Sequence record: SRR31156797_482
DNA: 64,000 bases
Direction: 5' to 3' (one strand)
In this document: piece after piece, positions 41,101 to 58,831 of the stretch
Numbering within the stretch: the stretch's first letter is position 1
How the letters are laid out: the number at the start of each line of letters is the position of its first letter
Program-made: the position numbers and the translations under genes
The notes under the pieces: generated by a model
Told to the model about the DNA's origin: nothing
What the model saw: only the letters and a program-made list of their open reading frames with translations
Database searches by the model: none

Positions 41101-41340
41101 TGCAAAGTAACGGAGGTTATCAATCCCGGTCAGACTCTGCTCAATAACCTGGGTAACGCTGTTCTCAACAGTTTCTGCAGAAGCGCCTGGGTAGAAGGCA
41201 TTTATAGTAACCTGTGGTGGAGCAACGACCGTAGGGTATTGCTCAACAGGCATGAATTTAATCGTGAGTGCACCAGCCAGCATGGTCAGGATAGCAAGCA
41301 CCCACGCAAAAACTGGTCGATCAATAAAAAAACGAGACAT
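38191..41340 (-). CDS. HAE1 RND efflux permease (AcrB/MexB-like)
   Basis: [49 protein letters not shown]. Confidence 0.96.
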
Positions 41341-41393
41341 ATTTTGTCCTTTTCTATGGTTTGGTACTTTGTGACCTTAAAAAAGTATCATCA

Positions 41394-42518: not shown

Positions 42519-42546
42519 GATAAATTTCCAGAAATGTATAAAACGA

Positions 42547-42564
42547 TGGTTAACAAGTTAACTA
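42547..42564. promoter_or_regulatory. Putative MarR operator upstream of adaptor gene
   Basis: Palindrome TGGTTAACAAGTTAACTA; second copy at 43034-43051. Confidence 0.65.
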
Positions 42565-42579
42565 GTGCCACAAAAAAAA

Positions 42580-43014
42580 TCACTTTTGGCTGTTTTCAAT
42601 AATTTTTCGCAGGATTTTTTTTAGCGTCTCAATATCCTCAGGTTCGATTCCTTCTCCGCATTCATTGAGATTGTCTTGAGCCAGGATAACCAGCTTTTCG
42701 TATATGTTTTCTCCTTCTTCAGTGAGATAGACAAGCTTTGACCGACCATCATTATGATCGGGTTTGCGACTGACAAAACCTCTCTTTTCAAGACTTGAGA
42801 TCAGCTTAAAAGCCGCAACCTTACTTATCTCAAACTTGTCAGCAATGTTTTGCTGCGAGATACCATCCTGGCGATGAAGAAGAATGAGCATCCCATATTT
42901 TTCAGGACTTATATCAAATCCAGCTTGTAAAAATTTTTGATGTAGTCTTTCCCGCACCCTCTTTGAAGCAACAACTAAAAAAAAAGCATACGAAGTAAAA
43001 GGATCATAGCGCAT
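42580..43014 (-). CDS. MarR family transcriptional regulator
   Basis: wHTH with LE.RG.V.R.....DGRSK.V.LT..G. Confidence 0.92.
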   Translation of the reverse strand: MRYDPFTSYAFFLVVASKRVRERLHQKFLQAGFDISPEKYGMLILLHRQDGISQQNIADKFEISKVAAFKLISSLEKRGFVSRKPDHNDGRSKLVYLTEEGENIYEKLVILAQDNLNECGEGIEPEDIETLKKILRKIIENSQK

Positions 43015-43746: not shown

Positions 43747-45123
43747 CTATTCGACATCTGGATTCTCAAGGCCATGTTTTTTAATTTTTCGCCATAGCGA
43801 AACCCTATCAATACCAAGAATTTTTGCAGCTTCAGATCTTTTCCCTTCTACTTCATCAAGCACTTCAATGATATATCTTTTTTGATATTCTTCCAGGGTT
43901 GGCCAGCTATCCTCCTCTTCTTTGGCCACCCTCAAAGCATCCTGTCCCAAATCGTCTGGCAAGTGATGCGGTTCAATCGTATCTTCCCTGCACGTAATCA
44001 AAATCCTTTGTACAATATTTTCCAGTTCCCTTACATTACCCGGATACTGATACCCCTTGAGAATTTCCGCTGCTATTGGTGAAAGGCGAGGCGTTTTTTG
44101 CGTCGGTTCGGCATATTTTTGCAGAAAATGGTTTACCAGCAAGGGGATATCGTTCCGCCGTTCAACCAACGGCGGAACCAGAACGGTGATAACGTCTAGA
44201 CGGTAATAAAGATCATTACGAAAACTGCCATCCTCGGCTGCCTCTTTAAGATTCCTATTGGTGGCCGCCAGCACCCTGAAATCGACCCGAATTTCATCTG
44301 ACCCCCCAACTCGCATCAATTTACGTTCCTGAAGGACACGTAAAAGTTTGACCTGCATCCCAAGGGATAACTCACTCACTTCATCAAAAAAAACAGTTCC
44401 ACCCTGGGCACACTCAAGTAATCCTTTTTTCGTCTTTTCAGCCCCGGTAAAAGCACCCTGCTCATGCCCAAACAGTTCATTGCTAATCAAATCTTCGGTA
44501 AAAGCACCACAATTAAAAGCGACTATCCGCTTATCAGCTCTACGACTTAGCTCATGAATAGTGCGAGCAACCAACTCCTTGCCAGTACCGGTTTCACCAA
44601 CAATAAGGACATTACAGTCCAGCTGGGCAATTTGCGAAATCTGCTCCCGTAGAGCCTGTATTTTTGAACTCTGGCCGATAATCCTTGAGGAACCGCTGGT
44701 CTCGGAAATATGCTGCCGCAGCCGGTGCAGTTCCTGCTGCATCGAATTTTTTTCCAGAGCTTTAACAACAATGGCCTTCAACTCCTTGATGTTCAACGGC
44801 TTGGCCAAATAATAGTAGGCCCCTTTACTCATGGACTCAACAGCATTATTTAAGCTGGCATAACCAGTAACCATCAATATTTCGGCAGCAGGCCATAAAC
44901 GTTTTGTTTCCTCAAGAACTGCCAGCCCGTCTTTGCCTTTCATCCGCAAATCTGTAATAACCAGGTTCACTTCCTGGCGCTCCATAAGCTCAATAGCTTC
45001 TTCACCACTCCCGGCAGCAAAAACCGTGTACCCTTCCTTACGAAGGACATGGGTTAGGTTATCGCGGGCGATAGGTTCATCATCCACCACCAGAATTGCA
45101 TGTGTAACAGGTGCAGAGATCAT
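43747..45123 (-). CDS. sigma54-dependent response regulator (NtrC family)
   Basis: REC (VVDDE...TDLRM...KP), AAA+ GETGTGKE, GAFTGA, YPGNVREL, Fis HTH; probable start ATG 45123. Confidence 0.95.
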   Translation of the reverse strand: MISAPVTHAILVVDDEPIARDNLTHVLRKEGYTVFAAGSGEEAIELMERQEVNLVITDLRMKGKDGLAVLEETKRLWPAAEILMVTGYASLNNAVESMSKGAYYYLAKPLNIKELKAIVVKALEKNSMQQELHRLRQHISETSGSSRIIGQSSKIQALREQISQIAQLDCNVLIVGETGTGKELVARTIHELSRRADKRIVAFNCGAFTEDLISNELFGHEQGAFTGAEKTKKGLLECAQGGTVFFDEVSELSLGMQVKLLRVLQERKLMRVGGSDEIRVDFRVLAATNRNLKEAAEDGSFRNDLYYRLDVITVLVPPLVERRNDIPLLVNHFLQKYAEPTQKTPRLSPIAAEILKGYQYPGNVRELENIVQRILITCREDTIEPHHLPDDLGQDALRVAKEEEDSWPTLEEYQKRYIIEVLDEVEGKRSEAAKILGIDRVSLWRKIKKHGLENPDVE

Positions 45124-45127
45124 AATC

Positions 45128-46561
45128 TTATTGGGCGGCTTCCTGTAGCGGGAGAACGATAAAAAAAGAGGCCCCCTGGCCTGGTTCACTCATCACCGTA
45201 ACTTTGCCACGGTGCTGTTGAATGATACCGTAAGCCACGGAGAGTCCTAGTCCAGTGCCTTTTCCCTCTTCTTTGGTTGTATAAAAAGGATCAAACAAAC
45301 GCCCTTGGATTTCTTTTGGAATCCCAGGACCAGAGTCATGAATTTCGATTTGCACCTGCTTTTCTGCTTTGTCCACTTCAGTAGACAAAGTAATGACGCC
45401 CTCCTGTTCAATCGCTTGAGCTGCGTTCATAATAATATTAATAAAAACTTCCTGCATCCGCTGTACATCCATGGGTAACATGAGATTTGCAGGAATAGTG
45501 ACGACAATAGAAATATCTGCTGAAATCTGACTACTCACCAAGCTGACCGAGCGGGTCACGACATCTTTTAGCAGGGCTGTTCGAAGCTTGAAATCCTGGG
45601 AACGTGAAAATTCCAGCAGCCCTTTGACCACATCACGCGCCCGCATTGTTTCCAGATAAATATTATCGAGCATATTCCTCTGCAACGATCTGCTATCAGA
45701 GTCAAAATCATCTATCGCAATTTGACAGGAGGTGGAAATATTATTTAACGGATTATTTAACTGATGGGCCACCCCTGCTGTAAGGGTGCCAATGGAAGAA
45801 AGTTTTTGCGACTGTACCAGTTGCTCCTGGCGTCTTTCCAATTCATACACCATGGTATTGAACGCCTCCAGAACCTGTTGCATTTCATCACCGGTATTTA
45901 TGACATCAACAGGCTTAAAGCGCCCTTCTGCAATAGCTGCAGTAGCTTTTTTGATGGAACGTAATGGCTTAAAAACACCAAAAAAAGCAAACAACGGAAT
46001 AAGAAAACCAAAACAGATTGCCACCATGGTCATAGTCGCAATCCTGGATTTTAACTCTCGAATAATATTACTCAGCTGTACCCGTTCAAACTCAAGCAAT
46101 CGAGCACTCTTTTCTGTCATCTGCTGGCCAAGTTCACGTGTTGAACTGACAACCTTTTTATATTCCTCGTGTCCGAGCACTTGCCCATCAGACAATAAAC
46201 TAACTGTATTACGGTAGGCAATGATACCCTTTTTCAGTTCCTTGACTAGGGGTAAAGCTTTCAGGTGCACCATTTGGTCGTGAACAGAGTTGATTGTCTC
46301 CTCTGCCTTCTGCACATACTTGCTATTCTCCTCAAGAGCTGCTGTTGTCTTGTAAAGAAAGAAGTTTTTTTCATACCGACGTACTTCAAGAATAATATTA
46401 TCCATCAAGTAGGCATACTCCATCATCTTGAATTTAATTTCCGCTGTTTGCAGATCATCTTTGGAAACAAACCAGACAGATACAATTCCAACCAGATAGA
46501 GAATCACAAAAAGAATAATTTTCAGGGTAAGAGTGAACTTCACCCGGTATGATTTAGGCAC
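45128..46561 (-). CDS. HAMP sensor histidine kinase
   Basis: 2 TM + periplasmic helical sensor, HAMP, HisKA AGVAHQLNNPL, HATPase (N, DSGPG, F, GTGLGL boxes). Confidence 0.93.
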   Translation of the reverse strand: MPKSYRVKFTLTLKIILFVILYLVGIVSVWFVSKDDLQTAEIKFKMMEYAYLMDNIILEVRRYEKNFFLYKTTAALEENSKYVQKAEETINSVHDQMVHLKALPLVKELKKGIIAYRNTVSLLSDGQVLGHEEYKKVVSSTRELGQQMTEKSARLLEFERVQLSNIIRELKSRIATMTMVAICFGFLIPLFAFFGVFKPLRSIKKATAAIAEGRFKPVDVINTGDEMQQVLEAFNTMVYELERRQEQLVQSQKLSSIGTLTAGVAHQLNNPLNNISTSCQIAIDDFDSDSRSLQRNMLDNIYLETMRARDVVKGLLEFSRSQDFKLRTALLKDVVTRSVSLVSSQISADISIVVTIPANLMLPMDVQRMQEVFINIIMNAAQAIEQEGVITLSTEVDKAEKQVQIEIHDSGPGIPKEIQGRLFDPFYTTKEEGKGTGLGLSVAYGIIQQHRGKVTVMSEPGQGASFFIVLPLQEAAQ

Positions 46562-46678: not shown

Positions 46679-47533
46679 TCAACCTTGCCTTATCCGAGTT
46701 ACAAGTACAGGACAAGAGGCTCGGGAAGCAACATGCTCGACAGTATTGCCACAAAACAAATCAACTCCGGATGAATCAGCCTTATACCCTAAAACGATGA
46801 GATTAATATTTTGGTCCACCGCATAACTGAGAATGCATTGTTCAGTGCTATTGCCACGCATAGCAGCAATCACCGGAATATCGAGTTGTTCGCACCTGGC
46901 AACAAACTCTTTTAAAATATTCCACCCTTCTTTTTCGGCCTCCCCCAGCACCCCGTAACGAAACGAACGGTCGATTGGAATATCAGTTACATAGAGTGCG
47001 TGAATCTCGCTTCCGTAGCTCACAGCCAAATCAATAGCCTCCCGGCATACGGGCTCCATCTCCAGTGAACCATTTACATGTACCAAAATGCGGTCAAATT
47101 TTATTTCAGCATCTTCTGGCACCAAGAGTGTATCACAAGGACTACCTGCTATCACACTAAGAGTCGTGCTTCCAAGTAATATCTTTTCCAACGGCATCCG
47201 TTTGGAACAACCAAGAAGTATCAAATCAGCCTGCTCCTGTCGAGCGGCTACAACAATCTCCAACCGTGGTTTCCCTACTCGGTGAATCGTTTGCATGTTG
47301 AGTCCCAAAGATAAAGCATATTGCTTTGCTTCATAGAGAACATTTTGATGGGGAGCTTTCAGTTGTCGGTCAGCATTATCTAAAAAAAGTCGATTCATAT
47401 TGCCTTCATATTCGGGAGTTACAGAAATCACCACGACTCTTGCCCGCATAGAGGAGGCCAATGCCAAAGCCTCCTTATAGAGTGAACGGTTTTCCCAGGC
47501 ATTATCCATTGCGGCCAGTATTGTTCGTATCAT
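46679..47533 (-). CDS. Tandem universal stress protein
   Basis: Two USP domains (ADLILLG...LLGST...SPCD.L.VP; INLIVLG...CGNTVE.V...ASCPVLV). Confidence 0.88.
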   Translation of the reverse strand: MIRTILAAMDNAWENRSLYKEALALASSMRARVVVISVTPEYEGNMNRLFLDNADRQLKAPHQNVLYEAKQYALSLGLNMQTIHRVGKPRLEIVVAARQEQADLILLGCSKRMPLEKILLGSTTLSVIAGSPCDTLLVPEDAEIKFDRILVHVNGSLEMEPVCREAIDLAVSYGSEIHALYVTDIPIDRSFRYGVLGEAEKEGWNILKEFVARCEQLDIPVIAAMRGNSTEQCILSYAVDQNINLIVLGYKADSSGVDLFCGNTVEHVASRASCPVLVTRIRQG

Positions 47534-47572: not shown

Positions 47573-48037
47573 TCACTTAGCACCTCTTGTTCCGTAAAAA
47601 ACAGGAACAGGAGCCACAGTAAGCAGCTCATCCTTTTTGATTCCTCGATCTACAACAATAAAGCCTACATTTTTAATAATCCGGCAAAGCCGATGTACAA
47701 CTTTGCTTATCTTCCCAGTCTCCAAGACATAAGCTACGGCAACCCCTTTTCTCTCAGCCTGCTTTTTAAGGGCAAGCACGCTCTCGTTAACCGCTGCAGA
47801 GAAAAGGTGATTGCGCTGACCACCATCCGACAAAAGAGGCATGGTATCAACATAAACAACCAATAAACGATGGTTGAGCCTCTGCGCGACATTTACGCCA
47901 TACCCCATTGTAGCCCTGGAAAGATGACCGTTGCGAGTCAGTACCATAACAACAGGTAGACTGTGAATAGCTACTGGTGCTATCCCGTTCTCAGATTTTC
48001 TTCCAAATTCTCCATGATTTTTAATTTTTATCATCAT
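47573..48037 (-). CDS. Degenerate USP-like protein
   Basis: Alpha/beta pattern ending PVPVF, co-oriented upstream of the USP gene. Confidence 0.55.
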   Translation of the reverse strand: MMIKIKNHGEFGRKSENGIAPVAIHSLPVVMVLTRNGHLSRATMGYGVNVAQRLNHRLLVVYVDTMPLLSDGGQRNHLFSAAVNESVLALKKQAERKGVAVAYVLETGKISKVVHRLCRIIKNVGFIVVDRGIKKDELLTVAPVPVFYGTRGAK

Positions 48038-48541: not shown

Positions 48542-48557
48542 TGGTTCCCGATTTGCT
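48542..48557 (+). promoter_or_regulatory. sigma54 (-24/-12) promoter
   Basis: TGG-TTCCCGATTT-GCT: GG-N10-GC with TTGC at -12, downstream of the palindromes. Confidence 0.6.
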
Positions 48558-48647
48558 TTGACAAGAGAATTACTCTTTGCAGCACGACAGGATAAGCGAC
48601 AATGAATGAAAGTCAGACATTATGTATCCCTTAAAGGAGATTCAGTT

Positions 48648-48986
48648 ATGCAACAAAATGATCCTCATCAAACGAGAGTGGCAGTCAATGCAAGTAAACA
48701 GTCTTCAAAAAACAAGAGCGCTGGCACCGTCAACACAACTGTCCCAAACATGCAGGTCAGTCATCGCCCCAAAAGGCCGATCTCAAAAATGCTCCTTTTG
48801 GGTGGCTTATCTGCAGGAGGGTACGGCCTCCTCTTTTCTCATCAAGCCCTGATGACTACCACCTATACCCTTGGAGGCTGGCATGCCGTGTTTCCGGTGG
48901 GTACAGCATTTTGTTTTTCTTTTGTCCATGGAGCTTTTGCCAGCAACTTGCTTTCAGTAATTGGCATGGAGCCTAAAAAGGCCTGA
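48648..48986 (+). CDS. Small two-TM membrane protein upstream of TauE
   Basis: AAGGAG SD; two hydrophobic segments (GGWHAVFPVGTAFCFSFVHGAFAS). Confidence 0.75.
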   Translation: MQQNDPHQTRVAVNASKQSSKNKSAGTVNTTVPNMQVSHRPKRPISKMLLLGGLSAGGYGLLFSHQALMTTTYTLGGWHAVFPVGTAFCFSFVHGAFASNLLSVIGMEPKKA

Positions 48987-49038: not shown

Positions 49039-50379
49039 ATGAAAAAATATGTATTTATTCTGCTCACAGTGCTGCTCTTGACTCCACTGGTGCAGAATGC
49101 ACATGCCGGAGGGCCACCGCCAAAAAATGTAATAAAAGGGATTTTCACCCAAATTTCCGTCGTAAACAGAACCGCCACCATCAAGATGGATGGTCAAGAT
49201 GCAACCAAAATCCTTGTCCTTGGGAAAGCGATGTCCCCTGAAGACATCACCCTTGACAAAAAAGTGATGGTCAGCCTGGATCCCCATGCAGGTCCCAACG
49301 TCATCAAGGATGTTTCCGTCATGTTTTTTGATATGACCGTAACCAAAATTGCAGCTCTTCTTTTGGTTGGGTTGATAGGAGGATTGCTTTCAGGATTCAT
49401 CGGTTCAGGCGGTGCCTTTATCCTGACTCCGGCAATGATGTCCATGGGCGCACCTGGCGCAGTCGCAGTTGCCAGCAATATGTGCCATAAATTCCCCAAG
49501 GCCATGGTCGGCTCCTACAAACGCTGGAAATATGGTCAGGCAGATATCAAATTGGGCCTGGTAATAGCTGTCACTTCCATTATTGGGGTCCAGATTGGGA
49601 TAAAGGCCCAGAAATCCATACTGGACCATTGGGGAAACGCCGGGTCAAACCTCTATGTCAGCGCGATCTTTGTACTGGTACTGCTCATTGTTGGACTTTA
49701 TGTAATGCGGGATGCAATTAAGCTATCCAATGGTACTACCGAGGCAAAAACCTCAAAGCTGGCCACCAGACTGCAAAAATTGGAAATATGGCCAATGATG
49801 GAATTTAAGGTTGCCAAGGTACGTATATCTGCATGGATAACCATCCCGGTTGGCCTCTTTACCGGCATGCTGGCTGCGACCATTGCGGTAGGTGGCTTTA
49901 TCGGTGTTCCCGGAATGATCTATATAGTAGGTGCATCGGCACTGGTCTCCAGCGCAACAGAACTTGTTGTTGCGTTTATAATGGGTGCATGGGGGTCAGT
50001 ACAATGGGGAATGTCCGGACTTATTGATGTCCGGATGACCCTCCTTATCCTGGCGGGATCCTTGATAGGCGTACAACTCGGTGCAATCGGCACAACCTAT
50101 GTCAAAGATTATACCATCAAAATGGTTATGGCTTCTGTCATGTTGATCGTAGCGGTTTCGCGAGGCGCAAAGGTCCCTATCTATTTAGCAGACCTTGGTC
50201 TTATTCCGCAGCTACAGACAAAATTAAGCAGCGCACTCAATGCTGTCAGCTTCTGGGCCTTGATAGCAGCCCTGCTCGTTGCTGGAATTATCATCTCTGT
50301 TGCAATGGCCAAGGGCATGTTGCAGGATCGAGCACAAAAACGCAGCCAGGCAGCTACCGGCCAGGAAATTGCCGGATAA
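49039..50379 (+). CDS. Sulfite exporter TauE/SafE family permease with N-terminal exported domain
   Basis: GLLSGFIGSGGAFILTP and GMLAATIAVGGFIGVP repeats; signal peptide plus about 75 aa soluble segment. Confidence 0.88.
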   Translation: MKKYVFILLTVLLLTPLVQNAHAGGPPPKNVIKGIFTQISVVNRTATIKMDGQDATKILVLGKAMSPEDITLDKKVMVSLDPHAGPNVIKDVSVMFFDMTVTKIAALLLVGLIGGLLSGFIGSGGAFILTPAMMSMGAPGAVAVASNMCHKFPKAMVGSYKRWKYGQADIKLGLVIAVTSIIGVQIGIKAQKSILDHWGNAGSNLYVSAIFVLVLLIVGLYVMRDAIKLSNGTTEAKTSKLATRLQKLEIWPMMEFKVAKVRISAWITIPVGLFTGMLAATIAVGGFIGVPGMIYIVGASALVSSATELVVAFIMGAWGSVQWGMSGLIDVRMTLLILAGSLIGVQLGAIGTTYVKDYTIKMVMASVMLIVAVSRGAKVPIYLADLGLIPQLQTKLSSALNAVSFWALIAALLVAGIIISVAMAKGMLQDRAQKRSQAATGQEIAG

Positions 50380-50935
50380 AATGCCATATTTATGGAGTTA
50401 TTGCCATCATGACCGGTGATAACTCCATAGGCGTTCTCCGTATCTGGAAGAATGATACCAGCTCTCCCCACGTCGCCCCTGAAGCAGGGGCACCTTATCC
50501 CCGCATCCTAACGCTGAAGAGTTTTACCCAAGAGGTATAGCTATGGAATTCTCTATATATTTTTCTGTATTTGTCATTTGTATGAGTACACTTCATCTTA
50601 TTTCACAACTTGCCGCTTCCGCACACCGTTCTCATGCATATGCTTCTGCTTCGTTGCCAACAACGAAAAGAACAATGGAGTTAAGAGACGACTGGTATAT
50701 GTTTTTTTACTGCTCAGCTCTCACCGGACAACGGCACAAAGTCAAGCACCTGAATACAACTGCAAGCTTCTACCAACAACGAGTTCCCAGTCGTTTGGCC
50801 TCGCGAACATATGTACACTAGCCACCAACTCCCCCACATTCTTCTTCCAGGCAATGCTTCCACCTCCAAAACTGTGATGGGGAAAAATCATGTTTTTTAA
50901 AAAAAAGAACAGCAAAAAGCTCCCCCCAAAAAGGG

Positions 50936-52915
50936 ATGCCACAACATTCCTCACTTACCCAATTAAAGGGCAAAATTGAGACTACTGATCTTCCTTCCCA
51001 TGCATTACAGGCGGCACTCTCTGAATTACAAAAACTGGAGAAAACAGACCCGGCTATGGCCGAGTACACGGTTGGCATAAATTATATAGACCTCCTCCTG
51101 GATCTTCCTTGGAGAGTGAGTCAACAAGGGTACTTTGATCTTGAAAGAGCGCAAAAGATACTGGATGCACGCCACTGCGGACTGCATCAGATCAAACAGC
51201 TCATTCTTGAATTTCTCGCCGTAAAAAGGCTGCGGGAGAACAACAAGCCACAAATACTGATTGTTGATGACGAGGCTATAGCCCGTACAAATATGGAGCA
51301 TATCCTTCTCAAAGAAGGATACCGTTGCTTTACGGCTGCAAACGGTGCTGAAGCCTTAAAATTATTACCTGAAAATGAGATTGACCTGGTCATCACCGAC
51401 CTGAAGATGAACTGTATGAACGGCATTGAATTGCTGGGCCACATCACCAGACTGAATCCTGAAATACCAGTCATTATAGTTACCGGTTTTGCCACAGTCG
51501 ACACCGCAGTGAAGGCCCTGCAAAAAGGTGCTGCCAATTATTTAGGCAAGCCTGTCAACCTGAATGAACTCAAAAAAGCAGTCAAGGATATTTTAAAACA
51601 CAGGCGGTGCAGGGATATCGACAAAGCGCCAATTCTCTGCTTTACCGGGCCCCCAGGCACAGGCAAGACCTCTATTGGAAAAGCTATTGCCGATGCCCTA
51701 CAACGTCAATTTGTTAGGGTCTCTGTGGGTGGTTTGCGCGATGAAGCCGAATTGCGTGGCCACCGACGAACATATGTAGGAGCCATGCCTGGTCGAATAG
51801 TAAGCGAGATCAGAAGATCGAAAATAAACAATCCTGTTTTTATGCTTGACGAGCTGGATAAAATTGGCCAGGATTTTCGTGGCGACCCAGCCTCTGTATT
51901 GTTAGAAATTTTTGATCCGGAACAAAACTCGCAGTTTATCGACCACTACCTGGATATTCCATTTGACCTGTCCCATGTCATGTTTATGGCAACAGCAAAC
52001 GATCTTTCCAGGTTGCCCTTACCACTACTTGACCGTATGGAGATTGTTCATTTCACGGGGTATACAGAGCTGGAAAAAATGAAAATCACGCAACAGCATA
52101 TTGTTCCACGACAGCTCAAAGCGACAGGGCTGAGTAAATCAGCCATCACCTTTACCGATGACGCAGTGTCATGCCTCATAAATGATTACACCCGTGAACC
52201 AGGACTGCGAAATCTGGAGCGCGAGATAGCAAGTGTCTGCAGGAAGATAGCACTCTTAAAACTTGCATCAGGAGAGGATACCAACTTTACCGTTATTGAA
52301 AAAAACGATGTCTCTTCTTTTTTAGGGACGAAAAAATTTTACCGTGAAGTAAGCAGTGCAGGAGACCACACAGGCATTACCACCGGACTGGTTTGGTCTG
52401 AGTCTGGCGGAGAAATTATATCCATTGAAACCGTCAAAATGCCTGGCAATGGAGGCCTCATCCTTACCGGATCATTGGGTGAAATCTTGCAGGAATCAGC
52501 CCATACCGTTTTAAGTCTGATTCGTAGCAAAGCCGACGAGTTTGCACTTCCCCATGACCTTTTTCAACGATATGACATCCACCTCCATATCCCGGCTGGC
52601 AGCATCGCCAAAGACGGACCATCAGCAGGTATCCCCATATTTGCAGCCCTGCTGTCTCTTTTTACAGAGAGGATGACACGCCCTGGAGTTGCATCAACAG
52701 GTGAAATAACTTTAAGTGGTCGAATTCTTCCCGTCAGTGGAATTCGTGAAAAAATAATGGCAGCACAGCGGGCAGGAATGACAAGGGTACTCACCCCAAA
52801 AGCCAACCAAGATGAAGTGCTAGACCTCCCAGAAGACGTTATCGCAGGTATTGATATACAAATGATCAACGATATAAAACAAGTGATAGACTTGATCTTA
52901 GCCCCAATCCCATGA
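50936..52915 (+). CDS. Lon-family protease lacking the N-terminal LON domain, with inserted receiver domain
   Basis: LDLPW...LDARHCGL..IK..ILEFLAV, REC (51248-51597), GPPGTGKTS, GHRRTYVGAMPG, LDELDK, KDGPSAG and GIREK (Ser-Lys dyad). Confidence 0.92.
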   Translation: MPQHSSLTQLKGKIETTDLPSHALQAALSELQKLEKTDPAMAEYTVGINYIDLLLDLPWRVSQQGYFDLERAQKILDARHCGLHQIKQLILEFLAVKRLRENNKPQILIVDDEAIARTNMEHILLKEGYRCFTAANGAEALKLLPENEIDLVITDLKMNCMNGIELLGHITRLNPEIPVIIVTGFATVDTAVKALQKGAANYLGKPVNLNELKKAVKDILKHRRCRDIDKAPILCFTGPPGTGKTSIGKAIADALQRQFVRVSVGGLRDEAELRGHRRTYVGAMPGRIVSEIRRSKINNPVFMLDELDKIGQDFRGDPASVLLEIFDPEQNSQFIDHYLDIPFDLSHVMFMATANDLSRLPLPLLDRMEIVHFTGYTELEKMKITQQHIVPRQLKATGLSKSAITFTDDAVSCLINDYTREPGLRNLEREIASVCRKIALLKLASGEDTNFTVIEKNDVSSFLGTKKFYREVSSAGDHTGITTGLVWSESGGEIISIETVKMPGNGGLILTGSLGEILQESAHTVLSLIRSKADEFALPHDLFQRYDIHLHIPAGSIAKDGPSAGIPIFAALLSLFTERMTRPGVASTGEITLSGRILPVSGIREKIMAAQRAGMTRVLTPKANQDEVLDLPEDVIAGIDIQMINDIKQVIDLILAPIP

Positions 52916-53044
52916 CAGACGTCTCACAACCCTTTGGTTACATTTACACGAGATCAGGCTCGATGCAGAAAAGAACGCCTTGATCGCATATTGCAAAGGA
53001 AAACAGCTCACCACTTTATCAGGTTCTCATATAGGAAACGAACA

Positions 53045-54457
53045 ATGAAAATAATTCTTTTGTGCTGTGTATTCTCTCTTGTTTTTGCCAGCCAAGCCTT
53101 GGCAACGCATGCCATGCAGCCGGCTCTATCTTTAACGACAACCACCTGGGGTTACGCAGCACTAACATTATTTGCTTTGGCCTACGTGCTGGTTATTTTA
53201 GAAGAAAAAACCCATCTACGCAAAAGCAAACCTGTGATGCTGGCAGCCGGTATTATCTGGATCCTGCTGGCCTTGGCCTATCGCCAAGTAGGCATCCCGG
53301 CTGAACAAGCCCACCAAGCAATCATTCATAACATGACTGAGTATGCGGAATTAATGCTCTTCCTACTCGTCGCCATGACCTATATCAATTCCATGAATGA
53401 GCGGGGCGTCTTTCAAGCGCTGCGTTCCTGGCTGGTGTCGCGGGGGTTTTCTTTGCGCATTGTCTTCTGGGTTACCGGGCTGCTGGCCTTTCTCATCTCA
53501 CCCGTGGCTGATAACCTCACCACCGCTCTGCTCATGGGAGCAGTGGTCATGGCAGTAGCCGAGGACAATACAAAATTTATTGCGCTAGCCTGCGTCAATA
53601 TCGTTGTCGGTGCCAATGCCGGGGGTGCCTTTTCCCCCTTTGGTGATATTACCACCCTTATGGTCTGGCAAAAGGGACAGGTTGACTTCAGCCAGTTTTT
53701 CCTCCTCTTTTTCCCGGCCCTTATTAATTGGCTCATTCCGGCAACCATTATGAACTTCTTTGTCTCTCGGGAGACGCCGAAAGCCTTGGACAAAATTGTC
53801 TCCATGAAGTTTGGCGCCAAACGAATCATTGCTCTTTTTCTGCTGACAATCCTCACTGCGGTTTCCTTTCACAACTTTTTAGATCTCCCCCCGGCAGCAG
53901 GTATGATGCTGGGACTCGCTTACCTTGGCTTTTTCTCCTACTATCTTAAAATCAAAGAAAAAAGAGCCGTTGAATACGACGCTCCCTTAGGCATAAGAGA
54001 CAGCGTACCGGAGTCCCCCTTTGACATCTTTAATAAAGTCGCTCAGGCTGAATGGGATACGCTGCTCTTTTTCTATGGCGTGATTCTCTGCGTCGGTGGT
54101 CTGTCGCAGTTTGGCTACCTGGCTCTGATCTCCCACCATATGTACGAGGGCCTAGGCGCCACCAGCGCCAATATACTGGTAGGGATACTGTCTTCAATCA
54201 TCGATAATATCCCAGTGATGTTTGCAGTTCTTACCATGGATCCGACAATGCCTCTGGGACAATGGCTCTTGGTGACCTTAACTGCCGGGGTCGGTGGCAG
54301 CTTACTTTCCATAGGCTCAGCTGCAGGGGTGGCGTTGATGGGAACCGCCCGCGGTACCTATACCTTCGGAGCGCATCTGAAATGGATGCCGATTATTGCT
54401 CTGGGGTATGCAGGTAGTATTTACGCCCACATCCTTCTCAATAAGACCTTATTTTAA
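53045..54457 (+). CDS. nhaD: Na+/H+ antiporter NhaD
   Basis: EE..HLRKSKP, SPVADNLTT, GG.FSPFGDITT, EWDTLLFF, SSIIDNIP, GGSLLSIGSAAG; start ATG 53045. Confidence 0.9.
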   Translation: MKIILLCCVFSLVFASQALATHAMQPALSLTTTTWGYAALTLFALAYVLVILEEKTHLRKSKPVMLAAGIIWILLALAYRQVGIPAEQAHQAIIHNMTEYAELMLFLLVAMTYINSMNERGVFQALRSWLVSRGFSLRIVFWVTGLLAFLISPVADNLTTALLMGAVVMAVAEDNTKFIALACVNIVVGANAGGAFSPFGDITTLMVWQKGQVDFSQFFLLFFPALINWLIPATIMNFFVSRETPKALDKIVSMKFGAKRIIALFLLTILTAVSFHNFLDLPPAAGMMLGLAYLGFFSYYLKIKEKRAVEYDAPLGIRDSVPESPFDIFNKVAQAEWDTLLFFYGVILCVGGLSQFGYLALISHHMYEGLGATSANILVGILSSIIDNIPVMFAVLTMDPTMPLGQWLLVTLTAGVGGSLLSIGSAAGVALMGTARGTYTFGAHLKWMPIIALGYAGSIYAHILLNKTLF

Positions 54458-54628: not shown

Positions 54629-57600
54629 CTATATTGACGCAGAAGTCCCTCGACCTGTAAGCAGCTGCATCATCTTCTCCACAGCCAGCTTAGCAGCCTC
54701 GAAATCATAGTTATTTAATGCACTTTCGAGTGTTTTGTATAATGGAGCCATTTTGCCGGTGGTGAGTACCCCCGCATGCTGCTCCATGGTATCCAGAGCA
54801 CTGGTATCAAAGTCATCCAACTGCGTACTCAAGGTCTCAAGTACCTGCTTAAGCAGAACAGGGTCAACCACTGCGCCCCCTATTGTTTCTTTTGCTTTAC
54901 CAAGAGTGCAGATCGATACCAGCACCTCCTCAAGAGCTACCTTAGTCAGCTCGACGTGGACCGGATCAACCTGCTGTTCCCTGGCCTGATCCTCTAACTG
55001 CTGAGTGACATCCTGAAGTCGTTCGGCACCGATATTACCTGCCAGGCCCTTTAAGGTATGAGCAAGACGCTCAGCCAGTTCCCAATCCTTTCCCTCTACT
55101 GCCTGTGCAAATTGCTCAATAAAGTCTGCTTGATTACTACCGACCTTCGTGAGGATCTTATGATACAAGCTAGTGTTTCCCTGTGTGCGCTTAAGTCCAG
55201 CCAAAGTATTAATCCCCGCTAAATCAGGGATCATTGTTATTTGGTCTTCCTGTTTGCTGACCACCTGCTCATCCGTCAATGGACTTGATGGACGGATCCA
55301 TTTAGCCATGGTTTTAAACATATCCGCCACATTGATGGGTTTAGCGATATGATCATTCATACCAGCATCAATAACTTTCTTTTTATCACCCACCATGGCA
55401 TTAGCTGTCATAGCCAGAATAGGCAGCATTTTGTATTGATCCTGTTCACGGATTAGACGGGTGGCCGTATAACCGTCCATCACCGGCATCTGACAATCCA
55501 TCAATATTCCATCGAATTTTCGTTTGCCTAACCAGTCCAGAGCTTCCTGGCCGTCATTTGCCACCTCTGCTTTAATGCCATTAGACGTTAACAACTCCAA
55601 CGTCAACTCCTGATTAATCTCATTATCTTCGACCAACAACACGTACGCACCATGGAGCTCGGCTATATATTTTCTGGCTTCATCCTGACGGTTAACACCA
55701 CGATTTTCGCTGCTTACTTCACGTCCCATCGCTGACATAATCGCATCGAACAGGCTGGAGGAGGTCACAGGCTTGGTTAAAAATGCAGAAATATCAACTT
55801 CATCGGCCGTATCCGCTGCTTCTTCACGACCATAGGCGGTAACCAGAATCACCATGGGCACCTCAATGAGCTGATCGTTTTGCTGCATTGCACGGGTGGT
55901 CTCAATGCCGTCCATGCCCGGCATCTGCCAGTCCATGAGTACTAACGTGTACGGGTCATTGTCAGCCGAATCGATTAACCGGGCAATAGCGGTTTCACCC
56001 GTTGCAGCCTGATCGACCCGCAAACCGAAACTAACTAACATTTCGCTGAGTATCTCACGTGATGAAGGATTATCATCGACGACCAATACTCGAAGCACTC
56101 CAAGATCGGCAGTAAGGGAACGACGTGTTGAGGCTTTGCCTTGTTGTCGTCCTAGTACAGCGGTGAACTCAAAACTACTGCCGTTACCGGGTTCACTTTC
56201 CACCCATATCTCACCATGCATTAACTCAGATAGTTTTTTACTAATGGCTAAACCTAACCCGGTACCACCATACTTACGGGTAGTCGATGCATCCGCCTGC
56301 GAGAATGGTTGAAACAGTCCGGCCTGTTGTTCAGGGGTCATGCCAATACCACTATCACGCACAACAAAGTGCAGTGTGACGTACTCGTCACTCTGCTCTC
56401 TAACATCAACCGAAACAACAACCTCCCCACCTTTTTCGGTAAATTTAACCGCATTATTGCCCAGGTTGACAAGGATCTGCCCCAGACGCAAAGGATCTCC
56501 AATCAGGGCCGTAGGAATATCAGGAGGTACATTAAACATTAACTCCAAGCCTTTTTCTTCGGCTTTAAGTCCAACCAGACTAGCCAGGTTATCGAAAATA
56601 TCTTCCAGACGAAAATCAGTTTCTTCGATGTCCAGCTTACCCGCTTCAATTTTCGAAAAGTCGAGTATGTCATTAATAATACCAAGTAGAGCTTCACCGG
56701 AACGGTTCACTTTATCGACATAATTACGTTGCTTACGGTCTAAATCTGTCTGCAGCGCTAAATGACTCATACCAATAATGGCATTCATCGGCGTGCGGAT
56801 CTCATGACTCATATTCGCTAAAAAGTCGCTCTTGGCCCGTGTCGCTTCTTCGGCAAGCTCTTTAGCTTGAATTAATTCTTCTTCCGCCCTCTTTCGATCG
56901 GTAATATTTTCAAACACAACAGCAACACCGCCACCTGCAGCCTTATCAATCAAAGCAGCGCTGGCGTTAATCCATATAAGATCACCTTGTGGGCGATATA
57001 CTCCCATTTCAATACCGCTTACCCCTTTACCAGTGGTGAGTGCAATATTCGCTGGGTGTTGCTCTATGGGCATGGCCTTTAAATCTTTACCAACAATTTT
57101 CAATCCCTTGGAGTGAATATCGCATTCTTTAAGATTTTCTACACTCATACCGAAATAATCTTCACAGATGGTGTTTACTTCAACAATAGTACCACCAGCG
57201 TCAACCATGGCGACACCGACTGGCAGGGCTTCAAACAATGCCTTAAGTTTTTGCTGACTACTTCGAACTGCGCCCTCTGTTTCACGAATAGACCGCTCTG
57301 CACTCTTCCGCTCAGTGATGTCAATCAACCAACCCAGTATACCGTTTTCACCCTGATAATTAAGTGGCAGGTAGTTAATGAGCATATCCATAACCTGTCC
57401 ATTTTTACCGTACATCTGCAGCTCATAATTTTCTACACTCCCAGCTGCGGCCATTGTTTTTATCAATGTTTCTCTTTCGTCTGGGTTGACGTAAAGACTG
57501 GGTGACTTATCACCAACCCCGACGTTAAACATTTCAATAAATCTTGGATTGGCAAAGTGGATAAGACCCTTTGTAGAAAAGGCTACACCGACGGGACTTG

Positions 57601-58831
57601 TATCGAGTATGGATTGTAGCTGGGCTTGGCTTTCAACTAGTTCAGAAGTACGCTCTTCTACTCGCAATTCCAGTTTTTTATTGAGTTCTTTCAGTGCATT
57701 CTCACGCAAAACAAGGTTCTGCGCCATCTCCTTAAATGATGCTGCGAGTTGAGCAACCTCATCGCTTCCTTCTTGAGCGATACCATCTAGGTCGATATTT
57801 CCGGCAGTGATATTTTTAGCCGCATTGCTTAAACGGGATAATGGAGCGGTTATTCGTCGCGAAAAAAGAAACGATGCCAGGGTGGAGAGGAGGAGAGCCA
57901 GTATCAACAACACAAAATGTGTGGTCCTTTGTTGATACACTTTTTCAAGTGCTATTTCTTTGTTGGTCCTCAGCGAAAAACTCCAAAGAGTTGATTCTAT
58001 GGGAGCATAGGATACCCAGTATTCAGAACCATCTTCAAAAAAAAGACTTACTACGCCGCTGGTGTTGGCCGCATACAGCACTTTCAAATTTTCAGCATTA
58101 TCTGAAGCCAATTCATTTTGCAACGAGCTGAGCTGTTTACCTATTTGCCTGATGTCATGATGGAAAACCAGGTTACCCCTGTTACTGATAACAATGAAAT
58201 CGTTCTTGCTGATACTATCTGATTCAGTGAACTCGTTGAGTTTATTGAGGTCAATATCAACGGTTGTAACGCCAATGGTTTTACCTTCCTGTTGAAACGG
58301 TACAGAGAACGTTACCATATTGATATTTCCGCCTCCTCCATCAAAATACGGCTCGCTCCATAACGGTAAATTCCGGCTAATTGCACCAGCGTACCACTGT
58401 CTTTTCAAATAATCATAGCTGGTTGCAATATCTATAGATTCAATTTTACCTGCACTACGATATACGTAAGGTGAAAAGCGTTGAAGTTCTGAAAAGGCAC
58501 CTGGTTCAAATGCAATGGCCGCACCGTACACAAAAACGTTGTTTTGTATATTTTCCCTTAAAATGGCATACAAATCTTCCCTGCTTAATAATTTCCCACT
58601 AGCTGAAAGAACATCAGCAGTGGTGGAGGCGATTTGAGCAATTTCACGCAAATATTTATCAATTCGACTCGCATGATACTGTGCGATGTCAATGCTATTG
58701 GATTCGACTTGAGAAGCCGCATTCTCTCCTGCTTGCCAACTTGCGTACCCCATTACAAGTCCGATAACAACGAAGGTAGGCATGACCACGAATGTACCAA
58801 TTTTCTGTGCTATTGTTTTTTGCTGGAACAT
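54629..58831 (-). CDS. Hybrid sensor kinase Cache-HAMP-PAS-PAS-HisKA-HATPase-REC-REC-Hpt
   Basis: WY...W.EPY.D Cache; FLANMSHEIRTPMN; GGTGLGL; two REC; AHTLKG Hpt. Confidence 0.94.
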   Translation of the reverse strand: MFQQKTIAQKIGTFVVMPTFVVIGLVMGYASWQAGENAASQVESNSIDIAQYHASRIDKYLREIAQIASTTADVLSASGKLLSREDLYAILRENIQNNVFVYGAAIAFEPGAFSELQRFSPYVYRSAGKIESIDIATSYDYLKRQWYAGAISRNLPLWSEPYFDGGGGNINMVTFSVPFQQEGKTIGVTTVDIDLNKLNEFTESDSISKNDFIVISNRGNLVFHHDIRQIGKQLSSLQNELASDNAENLKVLYAANTSGVVSLFFEDGSEYWVSYAPIESTLWSFSLRTNKEIALEKVYQQRTTHFVLLILALLLSTLASFLFSRRITAPLSRLSNAAKNITAGNIDLDGIAQEGSDEVAQLAASFKEMAQNLVLRENALKELNKKLELRVEERTSELVESQAQLQSILDTSPVGVAFSTKGLIHFANPRFIEMFNVGVGDKSPSLYVNPDERETLIKTMAAAGSVENYELQMYGKNGQVMDMLINYLPLNYQGENGILGWLIDITERKSAERSIRETEGAVRSSQQKLKALFEALPVGVAMVDAGGTIVEVNTICEDYFGMSVENLKECDIHSKGLKIVGKDLKAMPIEQHPANIALTTGKGVSGIEMGVYRPQGDLIWINASAALIDKAAGGGVAVVFENITDRKRAEEELIQAKELAEEATRAKSDFLANMSHEIRTPMNAIIGMSHLALQTDLDRKQRNYVDKVNRSGEALLGIINDILDFSKIEAGKLDIEETDFRLEDIFDNLASLVGLKAEEKGLELMFNVPPDIPTALIGDPLRLGQILVNLGNNAVKFTEKGGEVVVSVDVREQSDEYVTLHFVVRDSGIGMTPEQQAGLFQPFSQADASTTRKYGGTGLGLAISKKLSELMHGEIWVESEPGNGSSFEFTAVLGRQQGKASTRRSLTADLGVLRVLVVDDNPSSREILSEMLVSFGLRVDQAATGETAIARLIDSADNDPYTLVLMDWQMPGMDGIETTRAMQQNDQLIEVPMVILVTAYGREEAADTADEVDISAFLTKPVTSSSLFDAIMSAMGREVSSENRGVNRQDEARKYIAELHGAYVLLVEDNEINQELTLELLTSNGIKAEVANDGQEALDWLGKRKFDGILMDCQMPVMDGYTATRLIREQDQYKMLPILAMTANAMVGDKKKVIDAGMNDHIAKPINVADMFKTMAKWIRPSSPLTDEQVVSKQEDQITMIPDLAGINTLAGLKRTQGNTSLYHKILTKVGSNQADFIEQFAQAVEGKDWELAERLAHTLKGLAGNIGAERLQDVTQQLEDQAREQQVDPVHVELTKVALEEVLVSICTLGKAKETIGGAVVDPVLLKQVLETLSTQLDDFDTSALDTMEQHAGVLTTGKMAPLYKTLESALNNYDFEAAKLAVEKMMQLLTGRGTSASI

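Follow-up and report, generated by a model that had tools for sequence, protein, structure and literature searches.

A LonA-type protease with an inserted receiver domain, linked to a histidine kinase and a sigma-54 activator

The stretch of DNA analysed here (the window; 64,000 nucleotides of sequence record SRR31156797_482, one strand) encodes a LonA-type protease in which a complete response-regulator receiver (REC) stands directly ahead of the ATPase motor and the substrate-binding LON N-domain is missing. We think it rather probable that this protein, referred to as REC-Lon, is of the type of DVU3303, that a histidine kinase (HK) encoded at 45128-46561 phosphorylates both its receiver and that of a neighbouring NtrC-type sigma-54 activator (enhancer-binding protein, EBP), and that phosphorylation of D155 alters the protease. 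DVU3303 is described as a response regulator with Lon protease in Desulfovibrio (Nitratidesulfovibrio) vulgaris Hildenborough (PMC3333781), and the design and its kinase and regulator partners are thus already on record in Desulfovibrio. The same paper termed DVU3303-3305 a "three-component system", proposed that phosphorylation activates the protease, and noted the association of REC-Lon with HK and regulator in other taxa as well (Rajeev et al. 2011, PMC3333781). The idea of a phosphorylation-controlled protease is likewise not new, and the window brings no new principle.

What is added here is the paralogy of the two receivers with their likeness at kinase-contact positions, a rearranged gene order in the window, and a conserved start that lies out of frame. 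The published hypothesis is sharpened by the shared kinase-contact signature, by a clean alpha0/beta1 insertion point and by a conserved N-terminal FF[KR][KR] tail, and the comparative results point to mutants worth making. Genetic support for the family comes from D. vulgaris, where cofitness among DVU3303, DVU3304 and DVU3305 was above 0.9 (Trotter et al. 2023, PMC10102598). A literature search for biochemical work on receiver-Lon fusions (phosphotransfer, gating) found none, and a term search of the main text of a 2008 survey of serine-protease architectures returned neither 'response regulator' nor 'receiver'. If the proposal is correct, a receiver on the ATPase motor of a protease would let an environmental signal act on protein degradation directly and quickly, and proteolysis would run parallel to transcription, both from one kinase.

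Domain organization and 5' end of REC-Lon

50890-50935, + strand: conserved family start (MFFKK...) and opening ~15 codons, in a different frame from the main ORF
50936-52915, + strand: REC-Lon ORF as it stands, 659 aa, LonA ATPase/protease core
50936-51241, + strand: pre-AAA helical region, residues 1-102, equivalent to T. thermophilus Lon 251-346; last helix ILEFLAV; no LON N-domain
51245-51610, + strand: inserted receiver (REC), residues 104-225, with D111, D112, phospho-acceptor D155, T183 and K205
51623-52270, + strand: AAA+ module, residues 230-445, with Walker A K244, pore-loop Y280, Walker B D305/E306 and Lon lid 395-445
52295-52900, + strand: Lon_C protease domain, residues 454-655, with the Ser563-Lys606 dyad

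The original prediction had described a Lon with a complete REC inside the AAA+ module, a missing substrate-binding N-domain, and an intact pore loop, Walker B motif and Ser-Lys dyad, all of which were borne out by Pfam, phmmer and motif positions. Response_reg (PF00072) was matched at residues 107-217 over profile positions 1-111 (E 7.2e-31; 107.1 bits against a gathering cut-off of 30.2), together with AAA at 234-373 (PF00004, E 7e-23), Lon_lid at 395-445 and Lon_C at 454-655 (PF05362, E 8.3e-69), while LON_substr_bdg (PF02190) was absent from the 659-aa ORF at E<=0.01 in the Pfam scan. With NCBIfam TIGR00763 'lon' the protein scored 682.7 bits, above the equivalog cut-off of 608.05, and the match falls into two stretches on either side of the REC. 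The receiver motifs are VDDE (110-113), TDLKM (154-158, with D155), VTG (182-184, with T183) and GKP (204-206, with K205); those of the AAA+ module are GPPGTGKTS (238-246), YVG (280-282) and LDELDK (304-309), and those of the protease are DGPSAG (560-565, with S563) and REK (604-606, with K606).

In a phmmer search against PDB chains, residues 9-102 aligned with residues 12-105 of B. subtilis Lon 3m6a and residues 230-653 with residues 107-528. Since the flanking segments are contiguous on 3m6a, the REC of ~127 residues is a clean insertion, and its site lies between helix ILEFLAV (90-96) and beta1/Walker A. The AF2 model (pLDDT 84.7, pTM 0.77) predicted helices at 3-16, 21-36, 42-56, 69-79 and 84-102 in the N-terminal region, with helix 84-102 leading into REC beta1 (106-110) and REC alpha5 (209-229) into AAA beta1 (233-237). 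The top fold matches of the model were LonA structures (3m6a, TMt 0.94). Two copies of residues 84-232, submitted as a receiver dimerisation query, gave a complex prediction score of 0.29 (mark 0.42), which speaks neither for nor against a dimer. Compared with canonical LonA (endopeptidase La; structures from E. coli, B. subtilis, T. thermophilus and M. taiwanensis), the AAA+, lid and S16 protease parts are 45-50% identical, and REC-Lon has Walker A/B, the pore-loop Tyr and the Ser-Lys dyad. By contrast, it lacks the LON N-domain, as well as the greater part of the long helix, and carries the 127-residue REC before beta1.

According to the original prediction, the protein begins at the pre-AAA bundle. 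This is correct in that no LON N-domain precedes the bundle and the start matches T. thermophilus Lon residue ~251, but the conserved start of the family lies 46 nt upstream, out of frame. ATG 50890, in a different frame from ATG 50936, reads MFFKKKNSKKLPPKRDA; upstream of 50936, the main frame gives CFLKKRTAKSSPQKG. ATG 50936 corresponds to Met16 of 674-aa homologues, whose family shares a conserved N-terminus of MxFF[KR][KR] plus about 10 residues; homologue P0001 (95% identical) begins MFFKKRTAKSSPKEG-MPQHSS. In-frame relatives have one A fewer than the A8 run at 50899-50906; the extra A shifts the conserved MFFKK start out of frame, so that expression of full-length REC-Lon in this strain may be reduced.

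A stronger reading is that this strain has lost the function of the gene in part or altogether and that only the truncated form from Met-50936, or rare slippage products, would be made. We take this to be a serious possibility, if one that falls clearly short of even chances. The A8 run parts the conserved start at 50890 from the body of the ORF, and the N-terminal part is widespread, with an [FLW]F-x-[KR] motif within the first 15 residues of 112/120 and 110/120 homologues listed and of 48/59 locus-derived proteins. In addition, contigs identical to the window have A8 at depth 27, whereas one base fewer is found at 50899 in contigs of a ~8% diverged strain from the same run (X1) and in contigs of a second run (X2). 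Against a disabled gene, the reading frame stays open throughout the other 659 codons, at 95% identity to an intact homologue, so inactivation would be recent or the Met16 form works. Moreover, the window-identical contigs may share the source sample of the window and thus lend A8 no independent support, and the extra A is possibly an assembly error.

Distribution and gene neighbourhood of the family

Response_reg (PF00072) and Lon domains occurred together in 120/120 matches listed from two homologue searches, in agreement with the predicted architecture of a REC inside Lon. Full-length matches to a junction query were found in 45/401 sampled genomes of one phylum and 32/201 of another, and REC-Lon is frequent among sulfate reducers and Nitrospirota. 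Members were found in Desulfovibrionaceae, Desulfovibrio sp. and Desulfocurvus; DVU3303 itself was not among the 120 matches listed for the Desulfovibrionaceae query. D111, D155, K205, K244, E306, S563 and K606 were invariant in 72/72 members, and D112, T183, Y280 and D305 were kept in at least 90% of the 72. Lon and REC paralogues were counted in the genomes of relatives (5 REC-Lon genomes), and full-length Lon frames of about 790-837 aa were also present in 5/5; REC-Lon is an extra LonA paralogue beside full-length Lon. The best 150 matches of a search of 50%-cluster representatives included three single-stretch REC-Lon proteins, P0121, P0132 (545 aa) and P0143 (580 aa). Among the long multi-stretch matches of that search, the 18 scanned with Pfam had no REC; 15 of these had at least two AAA stretches, a LON N-domain was present in P0133 and P0219, and P0129 had Lon_C twice.

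43747-45189, - strand: NtrC-type sigma-54 activator (EBP) with REC, Sigma54_activat and HTH_8; orthologue near REC-Lon in 47/59 loci
45128-46561, - strand: sensor histidine kinase (HK) of 477 aa, candidate shared kinase, with 2 TM, HAMP, HisKA and HATPase_c; orthologue near REC-Lon in 43/59 loci
46679-47533, - strand: tandem universal stress protein (Usp) by Pfam; orthologue in 18/59 loci
47573-48037, - strand: 154-aa ORF, no family match; relative in few loci (L001, L116, L143)
48606-48986, + strand: small membrane protein of 126 aa before TauE, no Pfam/NCBIfam match; relative beside TauE in 39/59 loci
49039-50379, + strand: TauE/SafE-family anion exporter by Pfam; orthologue in 38/59 loci
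52934-54457, + strand: NhaD Na+/H+ antiporter (NF038006, 595 bits), 18 nt downstream of REC-Lon
54629-58831, strand opposite REC-Lon: hybrid kinase with Hpt, 1400 aa, 1.7 kb downstream of REC-Lon

The survey of neighbourhoods that the original prediction had proposed as a check found the linkage conserved: orthologues of the EBP lie near REC-Lon in 47 of 59 unique loci, and both HK and EBP in 43. No orthologous HK, EBP or TauE was within reach in 8/59 loci, and a different kinase lies directly upstream of REC-Lon in one clade (L153-L155). The HK of the window has the sensor motif LE.RR.EKN..LY, which was kept in at least 90% of 44 kinases. These genes are best read as a conserved putative stress module that comprises the membrane sensor kinase, the sigma-54 activator and REC-Lon as well as the small membrane protein, the TauE exporter and Usp proteins. 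NhaD was not found at any of the 59 other REC-Lon loci, and its position downstream of REC-Lon is specific to the arrangement in the window. The TauE of the window has an extra N-terminal part of ~90 residues that orthologues do not match (matches begin at query residues 85-96). A strict sigma-54 promoter pattern had 4 matches in the window, no more than expected by chance, and none in the REC-Lon locus; a loose scan gave one 9-of-12 site (48542-48557) upstream of the 126-aa ORF. Across loci, crude scans detected no consistent sigma-54 promoter upstream of REC-Lon or of the small-protein/TauE genes, with 10 of 12 reached in 3/60 and 4/40 cases, respectively.

The D. vulgaris system resembles that of the window in combining receiver and Lon in one polypeptide, a likeness drawn from its description rather than from its sequence, and in its linked histidine kinase and sigma-54 response regulator (43747-46561 in the window). 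The genes described beside it, DVU3298-3302, include Usp, membrane and anion-transporter genes (PMC3333781, PMC10102598), as do those of the window (Usp at 46679-47533, TauE at 49039-50379), and a conserved DVU3305 binding-site motif was reported upstream of the operons of the module (PMC3333781). The arrangement differs in that the three D. vulgaris genes are described as one operon, whereas the HK and regulator of the window lie 4.4 kb off on the opposite strand, with the Usp and small-protein/TauE genes between and TauE co-directional with REC-Lon. The NhaD gene after REC-Lon and the out-of-frame conserved start are further differences.

Two related receivers and the proposed control of proteolysis

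The REC of REC-Lon and that of the neighbouring regulator are 48% identical (53/110), and the match at 16 of the first 23 REC residues given in the original prediction is exact. When the Lon REC was compared with all RECs of its genome, its top non-self match was the receiver of the linked EBP in 4/5 genomes; in the fifth that receiver ranked third, 0.2 bits behind the second. At 29 positions that we take, by Spo0F numbering, to be kinase contacts, the Lon REC and its partner EBP REC were 0.59-0.69 identical, against an average of 0.35-0.43 and a highest value of 0.52 for the next-best RECs of the same genomes. At non-contact positions the corresponding ranges were 0.40-0.62 and 0.39-0.46. Same-genome pairs of Lon REC and EBP REC exceeded shuffled pairings (0/2000-3000 shuffles), and this excess was 2.3 times more per position in the contact set. 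The covariation signal was small, with 50.0% identity in same-genome pairs against 48.1% in cross-genome pairs and a median rank of the own partner EBP REC of 16 of 48. By these sequence comparisons, the Lon REC and the REC of the linked regulator are mutual closest paralogues and most alike at kinase-contact positions. Because the likeness peaks at these positions, it supports one kinase feeding both receivers. On the other hand, common descent instead of a shared kinase could account for the high likeness of the two receiver families (48% from one to the other, about 55% inside each), and the D. vulgaris cofitness could partly result from polarity within one operon. The branched circuit of the original prediction, in which the HK at 45128-46561 feeds both the sigma-54 activator and REC-Lon, is therefore supported in part and indirectly, through linkage, closest paralogy, contact positions and cofitness.

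In the proposed mechanism, a LonA paralogue would have lost its LON N-domain and received a phospho-accepting receiver after its final pre-AAA helix, just ahead of beta1/Walker A. The module kinase would phosphorylate both receivers; the sigma-54 activator would switch on the transporter and Usp genes, and phosphorylation of D155 would change the ATPase/protease activity of the REC-Lon hexamer. REC alpha5, at most 3 residues away from beta1 and the P-loop in the model, would transmit this change. An analogy is offered by the sigma-54 activators NtrC, NtrC1 and DctD, in which an NtrC-family receiver likewise stands directly upstream of the AAA+ P-loop; the best REC matches of the Lon receiver were AtoC, GlrR and NtrC1. 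As in NtrC-type activators, the ring ATPase of REC-Lon is presumably controlled by receiver phosphorylation. The two differ in that the REC of REC-Lon follows rather than precedes the helix before beta1, and in that its output would be proteolysis and not sigma-54 remodelling, with no GAFTGA loop and no DNA-binding domain. RssB with ClpXP and CpdR with ClpXP/Lon also couple two-component signalling to ATP-dependent proteolysis through a receiver, and their profiles matched the Lon REC at E 1e-19 to 1e-22; these are separate adaptors acting in trans, whereas the receiver of REC-Lon is within the protease polypeptide.

The receiver could instead be mainly a docking or phosphate-sink device that competes with the activator, or takes over from the lost N-domain in binding the kinase or activator as a substrate, with proteolysis not switched by phosphorylation; we consider this unlikely. 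Substrates of Lon are normally recognised by the LON N-domain, which is missing here, and the REC is placed where that domain would attach. Competition for phosphoryl groups is plausible because both receivers carry the kinase-contact signature. However, conservation covers all residues of the phospho-switch, T183 and K205 among them, and not just the docking helix, and the almost direct fusion of alpha5 to beta1/P-loop in the model suggests allosteric coupling.

With regard to the sign of control, we favour activation of REC-Lon by phosphorylation over inhibition. The opposite logic, in which the unstimulated protease removes a target such as the activator or Usp and the signal shuts it off, has a small chance of being correct. 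Either sign is compatible with the sequence, and NtrC1/DctD-type AAA+ regulators, which are repressed by their receiver as long as it is unphosphorylated, show that either logic exists. On the other hand, the D. vulgaris protease, kinase and regulator mutants are reported to behave alike, with cofitness above 0.9 (PMC10102598); polarity could explain this likeness, which fits best if all three proteins act in the same direction.

Combining activation with the 5' end gives a more speculative scheme, one that we would not expect to hold as a whole: phosphorylated D155 would move alpha5 and turn on ATP hydrolysis and degradation of a module component (the partner activator or Usp), yielding a self-limiting pulse of the stress response. 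The family-wide FF[KR][KR] tail would either be autoinhibitory or engage the pore, and slippage at the T6A7/A8 tract by the start would switch this tail on and off. Finally, it is very improbable that another kinase, such as the large hybrid kinase with Hpt at 54629-58831, feeds the Lon receiver and that its likeness to the NtrC-type neighbour is ancestry only. In favour of this reading are the place of the hybrid kinase, 1.7 kb downstream on the opposite strand, and the other kinase directly upstream in the L153-L155 clade. Against it, the orthologous HK/EBP pair (43/59), and not a hybrid kinase, is conserved beside REC-Lon, and it is the partner EBP REC that the Lon REC resembles at the contact positions.

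Domain architecture of REC-Lon

The LonA-like protein studied here, REC-Lon, was originally predicted to begin at the Lon pre-AAA helical bundle, to lack an N-domain and to carry a receiver (REC) between ILEFLAV and Walker A. Pfam searches and alignment to solved Lon structures confirmed each of these points: no LON substrate-binding domain was found by Pfam in the 659-residue protein, and the REC, pore-loop, Walker and Ser-Lys motifs were all located at the predicted places.

Features of REC-Lon (residue numbering of the 659-residue form)
50936-52915, + strand: REC-Lon ORF, 659 residues
Residues 107-217: full receiver domain (Pfam, E 7.2e-31)
Residues 234-373: AAA domain (Pfam)
Residues 395-445: Lon lid (Pfam)
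Residues 454-655: Lon_C protease domain (Pfam, E 8.3e-69)
D111/D112, D155, T183, K205: receiver pocket and switch residues
238-246, 280-282, 304-309: Walker A, YVG and Walker B of the AAA+ module
S563, K606: protease residues

REC-Lon residues 9-102 and 230-653 aligned with residues 12-105 and 107-528 of B. subtilis Lon (3m6a), and T. thermophilus Lon gave the same two-piece match at 251-346 and 352-779. The receiver is therefore a clean insertion of ~127 residues between the helix ending in ILEFLAV and the strand beta1-Walker A, and the REC-Lon N-terminus coincides with the start of the LonA pre-AAA helices. The NCBIfam equivalog for endopeptidase La scored 682.7 bits (cut-off 608), split into two stretches. 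An AlphaFold2 model based on an alignment of 72 members of the family (pLDDT 84.7, pTM 0.77) had LonA structures as its top Foldseek ranks (3m6a, TMt 0.94; 6u5z, 0.92). In the model, helix 84-102 runs into REC beta1 (106-110), and REC helix alpha5 (209-229) stops three residues short of AAA+ beta1 (233-237). Across the 72 members D111, D155, K205, K244, E306, S563 and K606 were invariant, while D112, T183, Y280 and D305 were kept in at least 90%. At the level of sequence, the LonA motor and protease are intact, and the receiver retains every switch residue.

Gene neighbourhood and 5' end of REC-Lon

Features around REC-Lon in the window
43747-45189, - strand: NtrC-type activator
45128-46561, - strand: histidine kinase
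46679-47533, - strand, as kinase and activator: tandem Usp protein
Beside the tandem Usp, - strand, as kinase and activator: 154-residue ORF
5' of TauE, + strand, as REC-Lon: 126-residue membrane protein
49039-50379, + strand: TauE/SafE exporter
52934-54457, + strand: NhaD Na+/H+ antiporter, 18 nt after REC-Lon

Sixty REC-Lon loci (15 from the species-representative genome scan and 45 others) with flanks of up to 10 kb were surveyed, of which 59 remained after removal of one exact duplicate. Orthologues were called by blastp against the window proteins (activator, coverage at least 90% and identity at least 45%; kinase, coverage at least 85% and identity at least 30%). An orthologous activator was detected at 47/59 loci and the kinase at 43/59; both were present at 43/59, a co-location that the original prediction of a branched circuit with a shared kinase entails, and the linkage of REC-Lon to the activator of its module is established by these counts. 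TauE was found at 38 of the 59 loci, a relative of the small membrane protein at 39 and the tandem Usp at 18. Kinase, activator and TauE were all missing from eight of the 59, one of which is a 6.6-kb contig; several further misses (L122, L138, L141, L147) arise where a contig ends or a frame is split. Three of the eight loci (L153-L155) form a clade, 47-48% identical to the window REC-Lon, in which another histidine kinase gene sits immediately upstream.

The small protein and TauE are commonly divergent from REC-Lon; in the window they are co-directional with it, with the kinase and activator genes 4.4 kb away. The 59 other loci gave no NhaD hit; in the window NhaD is probably co-transcribed with REC-Lon. 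The window TauE/SafE has ~90 extra N-terminal residues resembling a signal peptide and a small domain; this part had no match in TauE orthologues of other loci, whose alignments begin at residues 85-96. A weak sigma-54-like -24/-12 element (TGG-N9-TTGCT, 9/12) lies at 48542-48557 (+), ~50 nt 5' of the 126-residue ORF, and was not consistently present in other REC-Lon loci. Further features are a 1400-residue hybrid sensor kinase at 54629-58831 (-) with Cache/PDC, HAMP, PAS, HisKA, HATPase, two receivers and Hpt, and an RND efflux operon at 36796-43014 (-) encoding an outer-membrane factor, an AcrB-type pump and a membrane-fusion protein; a MarR-family regulator is encoded upstream of the operon.

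REC-Lon homologues have ~672-682 residues and start with MFFKK or similar. The motif [FLW]F-x-[KR] occurs within the first 15 residues of 112/120 (P0001-P0120) and 110/120 (P0271-P0390) of the homologues listed, and at the corresponding place in 48/59 locus-derived proteins; most homologues without the strict motif have something very similar, for example IFKK or FFGSKK. The family-wide N-terminus reads Mx0-2[FLW]F-x-[KR], after which come ~12 residues of polar or acidic character. In the window, a MFFKKK... start lies at ATG 50890, 46 nt 5' of 50936 and out of frame. The main frame 5' of 50936 reads CFLKKRTAKSSPQKG, and the 95% identical homologue P0001 has MFFKKRTAKSSPKEG before the common MPQHSS, a comparison that places a frame switch inside the A8 run at 50899-50906. 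A contig of sequencing run X1 (depth 27.3) is identical to the window over this region, but is possibly from the window's own source sample and so not independent. A second X1 contig, ~8% diverged (12 differences in 142; depth 22.2), has one base fewer at 50899, and contigs of run X2 are likewise one base short. The A8 run could reflect a true extra A in the strain, a tract prone to slippage or an assembly error of a systematic kind. Whether the extra A is real or an error, ATG 50936 aligns with Met16 of the family protein. As read from the sequence, the window carries a rearranged arrangement of a known module together with a 5' frame anomaly.

A proposed shared kinase for the two receivers

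The predicted match of the first 23 residues of the Lon receiver to the neighbouring regulator (16/23) was exact, and over the whole domain 53/110 positions were identical (48%). A tree was built from 48 Lon receivers, the 48 activator receivers paired with them and six further receivers; two changes sufficed per label (shuffled mean ~34). The two families are thus old paralogues and not repeated recent copies, and each receiver type may have a single origin. Mean identity was 55.3% within the Lon receiver family, 55.9% within that of the activator receivers and 48.2% from one family to the other, an unusually high likeness. When the window Lon receiver was used as query in five whole genomes, where 14-61 receivers per genome matched at E<=1e-15, the genome's own REC-Lon ranked first in each; the linked activator was second in four and third in the fifth, 0.2 bits behind the second.

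Twenty-nine positions were fixed beforehand as the putative kinase-contact surface (alpha1, 113-124; beta3-alpha3 loop, 156-160; beta4-alpha4 loop, 184-189; beta5-alpha5 loop, 205-210). The choice follows studies of Spo0F/Spo0B and of specificity residues, the Spo0F numbering being shifted by 101. At these positions the Lon and partner activator receivers were 0.59-0.69 identical in the five genomes, whereas the four next-best receivers per genome averaged 0.35-0.43 (maximum 0.52). At the remaining positions the values were 0.40-0.62 versus 0.39-0.46, and in one genome (L006) the partner had no advantage outside the contact set. The alpha1 signature [IV]A[RL]xN[LI] is common to Lon and activator receivers and missing from the other receivers compared. 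Same-genome pairs were 50.0% identical versus 48.1% across genomes, a value reached in 0/2000 shuffles; the excess per position was 0.032 at contact positions and 0.014 at the others, and the own partner's median rank was 16 of 48. Covariation within genomes is present but weak. Little would be expected, because the kinase docking helix hardly varies: the phospho-acceptor helix AH..NNPL.NIS.S.QI is nearly invariant in at least 90% of 44 kinase sequences, and the sensor motif LE.RR.EKN..LY (window kinase residues 58-70) is likewise found in at least 90% of them. Taken together, these comparisons favour a shared kinase. Shared ancestry under common constraint would yield a similar picture of receiver likeness, and a different kinase feeding the Lon receiver is a rival to be set against the co-location of the 477-residue kinase and the contact-position identity.

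We propose that this kinase would phosphorylate D155, and that the resulting change at the alpha4-beta5-alpha5 face would pass through alpha5, which leads almost straight into beta1 and the P-loop and could relay it to ATP binding or subunit packing and switch proteolysis. With the N-domain gone, recognition may proceed via the receiver, the conserved N-terminal FF[KR][KR] tail or the pre-AAA helices. The idea of phosphorylation control has been in print since 2011, and the module DVU3303-DVU3304-DVU3305 of D. vulgaris, whose equivalence is drawn from the published descriptions and from Desulfovibrionaceae members with the same neighbours (L005, L012, L015), is described as induced at high pH, upon heat shock and in stationary phase (Rajeev et al., PMC3333781). 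Its three genes are reported to have pairwise cofitness above 0.9 and to be detrimental in chlorate, and the target DVU3299 to be a putative anion transporter (Trotter et al. 2023, PMC10102598); reported DVU3305 targets are DVU3302-3298 and DVU3303-3305 (Kazakov et al. 2015, PMC4641369). Because mutation of the protease gene in D. vulgaris has effects like those of kinase or regulator mutation, activation by phosphorylation is by analogy the preferred sign, although operon polarity could, we infer, likewise account for this agreement. Inhibition by phosphorylation is the rival of opposite sign, and the receiver might instead be a docking or phosphate-sink device, set against its near-direct junction with the AAA+ module in the model. 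Partial or complete loss of REC-Lon function in the window strain could follow from a real frame shift, set against the intact core downstream. Literature searches turned up no biochemical work on a fusion of receiver and Lon, and a term search of the main text of a 2008 serine-protease architecture survey found neither 'response regulator' nor 'receiver'. Gating of REC-Lon in a branched circuit seems a reasonable interpretation, with some comparative support.

Family and distribution

The architecture of the original prediction recurred in both homologue searches: PF00072 and Lon domains occurred together in all 120 homologues listed for the window protein, from named sources including Desulfogranum marinum (87%), Desulforhopalus, Desulfopila, Desulfobulbus propionicus, Desulfomarina and Desulfosediminicola, and in every one of the 120 listed when a Desulfovibrionaceae member was the query, among them Halodesulfovibrio, Desulfocurvibacter africanus and Desulfovermiculus. 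A species-representative genome scan gave 15 loci with uninterrupted full-length matches, from Desulfobulbales (L001), Syntrophobacter(aceae), Desulfococcaceae, Desulfocurvus, Desulfomonilaceae, Desulfonema, Desulfocapsaceae, Nitrospirota (L011), Desulfovibrionaceae and Desulfovibrio sp. Among the other 65, 62 match over ~1.3-1.6 kb, the length of Lon without a receiver, and L013 over 1.85 kb (query residues 10-627). Matches at L053 and L074, a Rhodothermales and a Bacillota record, span 2.8-2.9 kb, which suggests large insertions in their Lon genes. A junction query (REC-Lon residues 60-260, 201 residues) had full-length matches in 45/401 sampled genomes of the phylum of genome G001 and 32/201 of that of G003. 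Full-length Lon frames (~790-837 residues) were also present in 5/5 REC-Lon genomes examined, and REC-Lon is therefore an additional paralogue and not the housekeeping Lon.

Outside the window, the representative search returned long Lon-family proteins of ~890-1675 residues (P0122-P0139, P0153, P0255). Among the 18 scanned with Pfam, none has a receiver, two have a LON N-domain and one has ankyrin repeats; 15 have two or three Lon-type AAA stretches, most accompanied by matching lids, followed by a single Lon_C.
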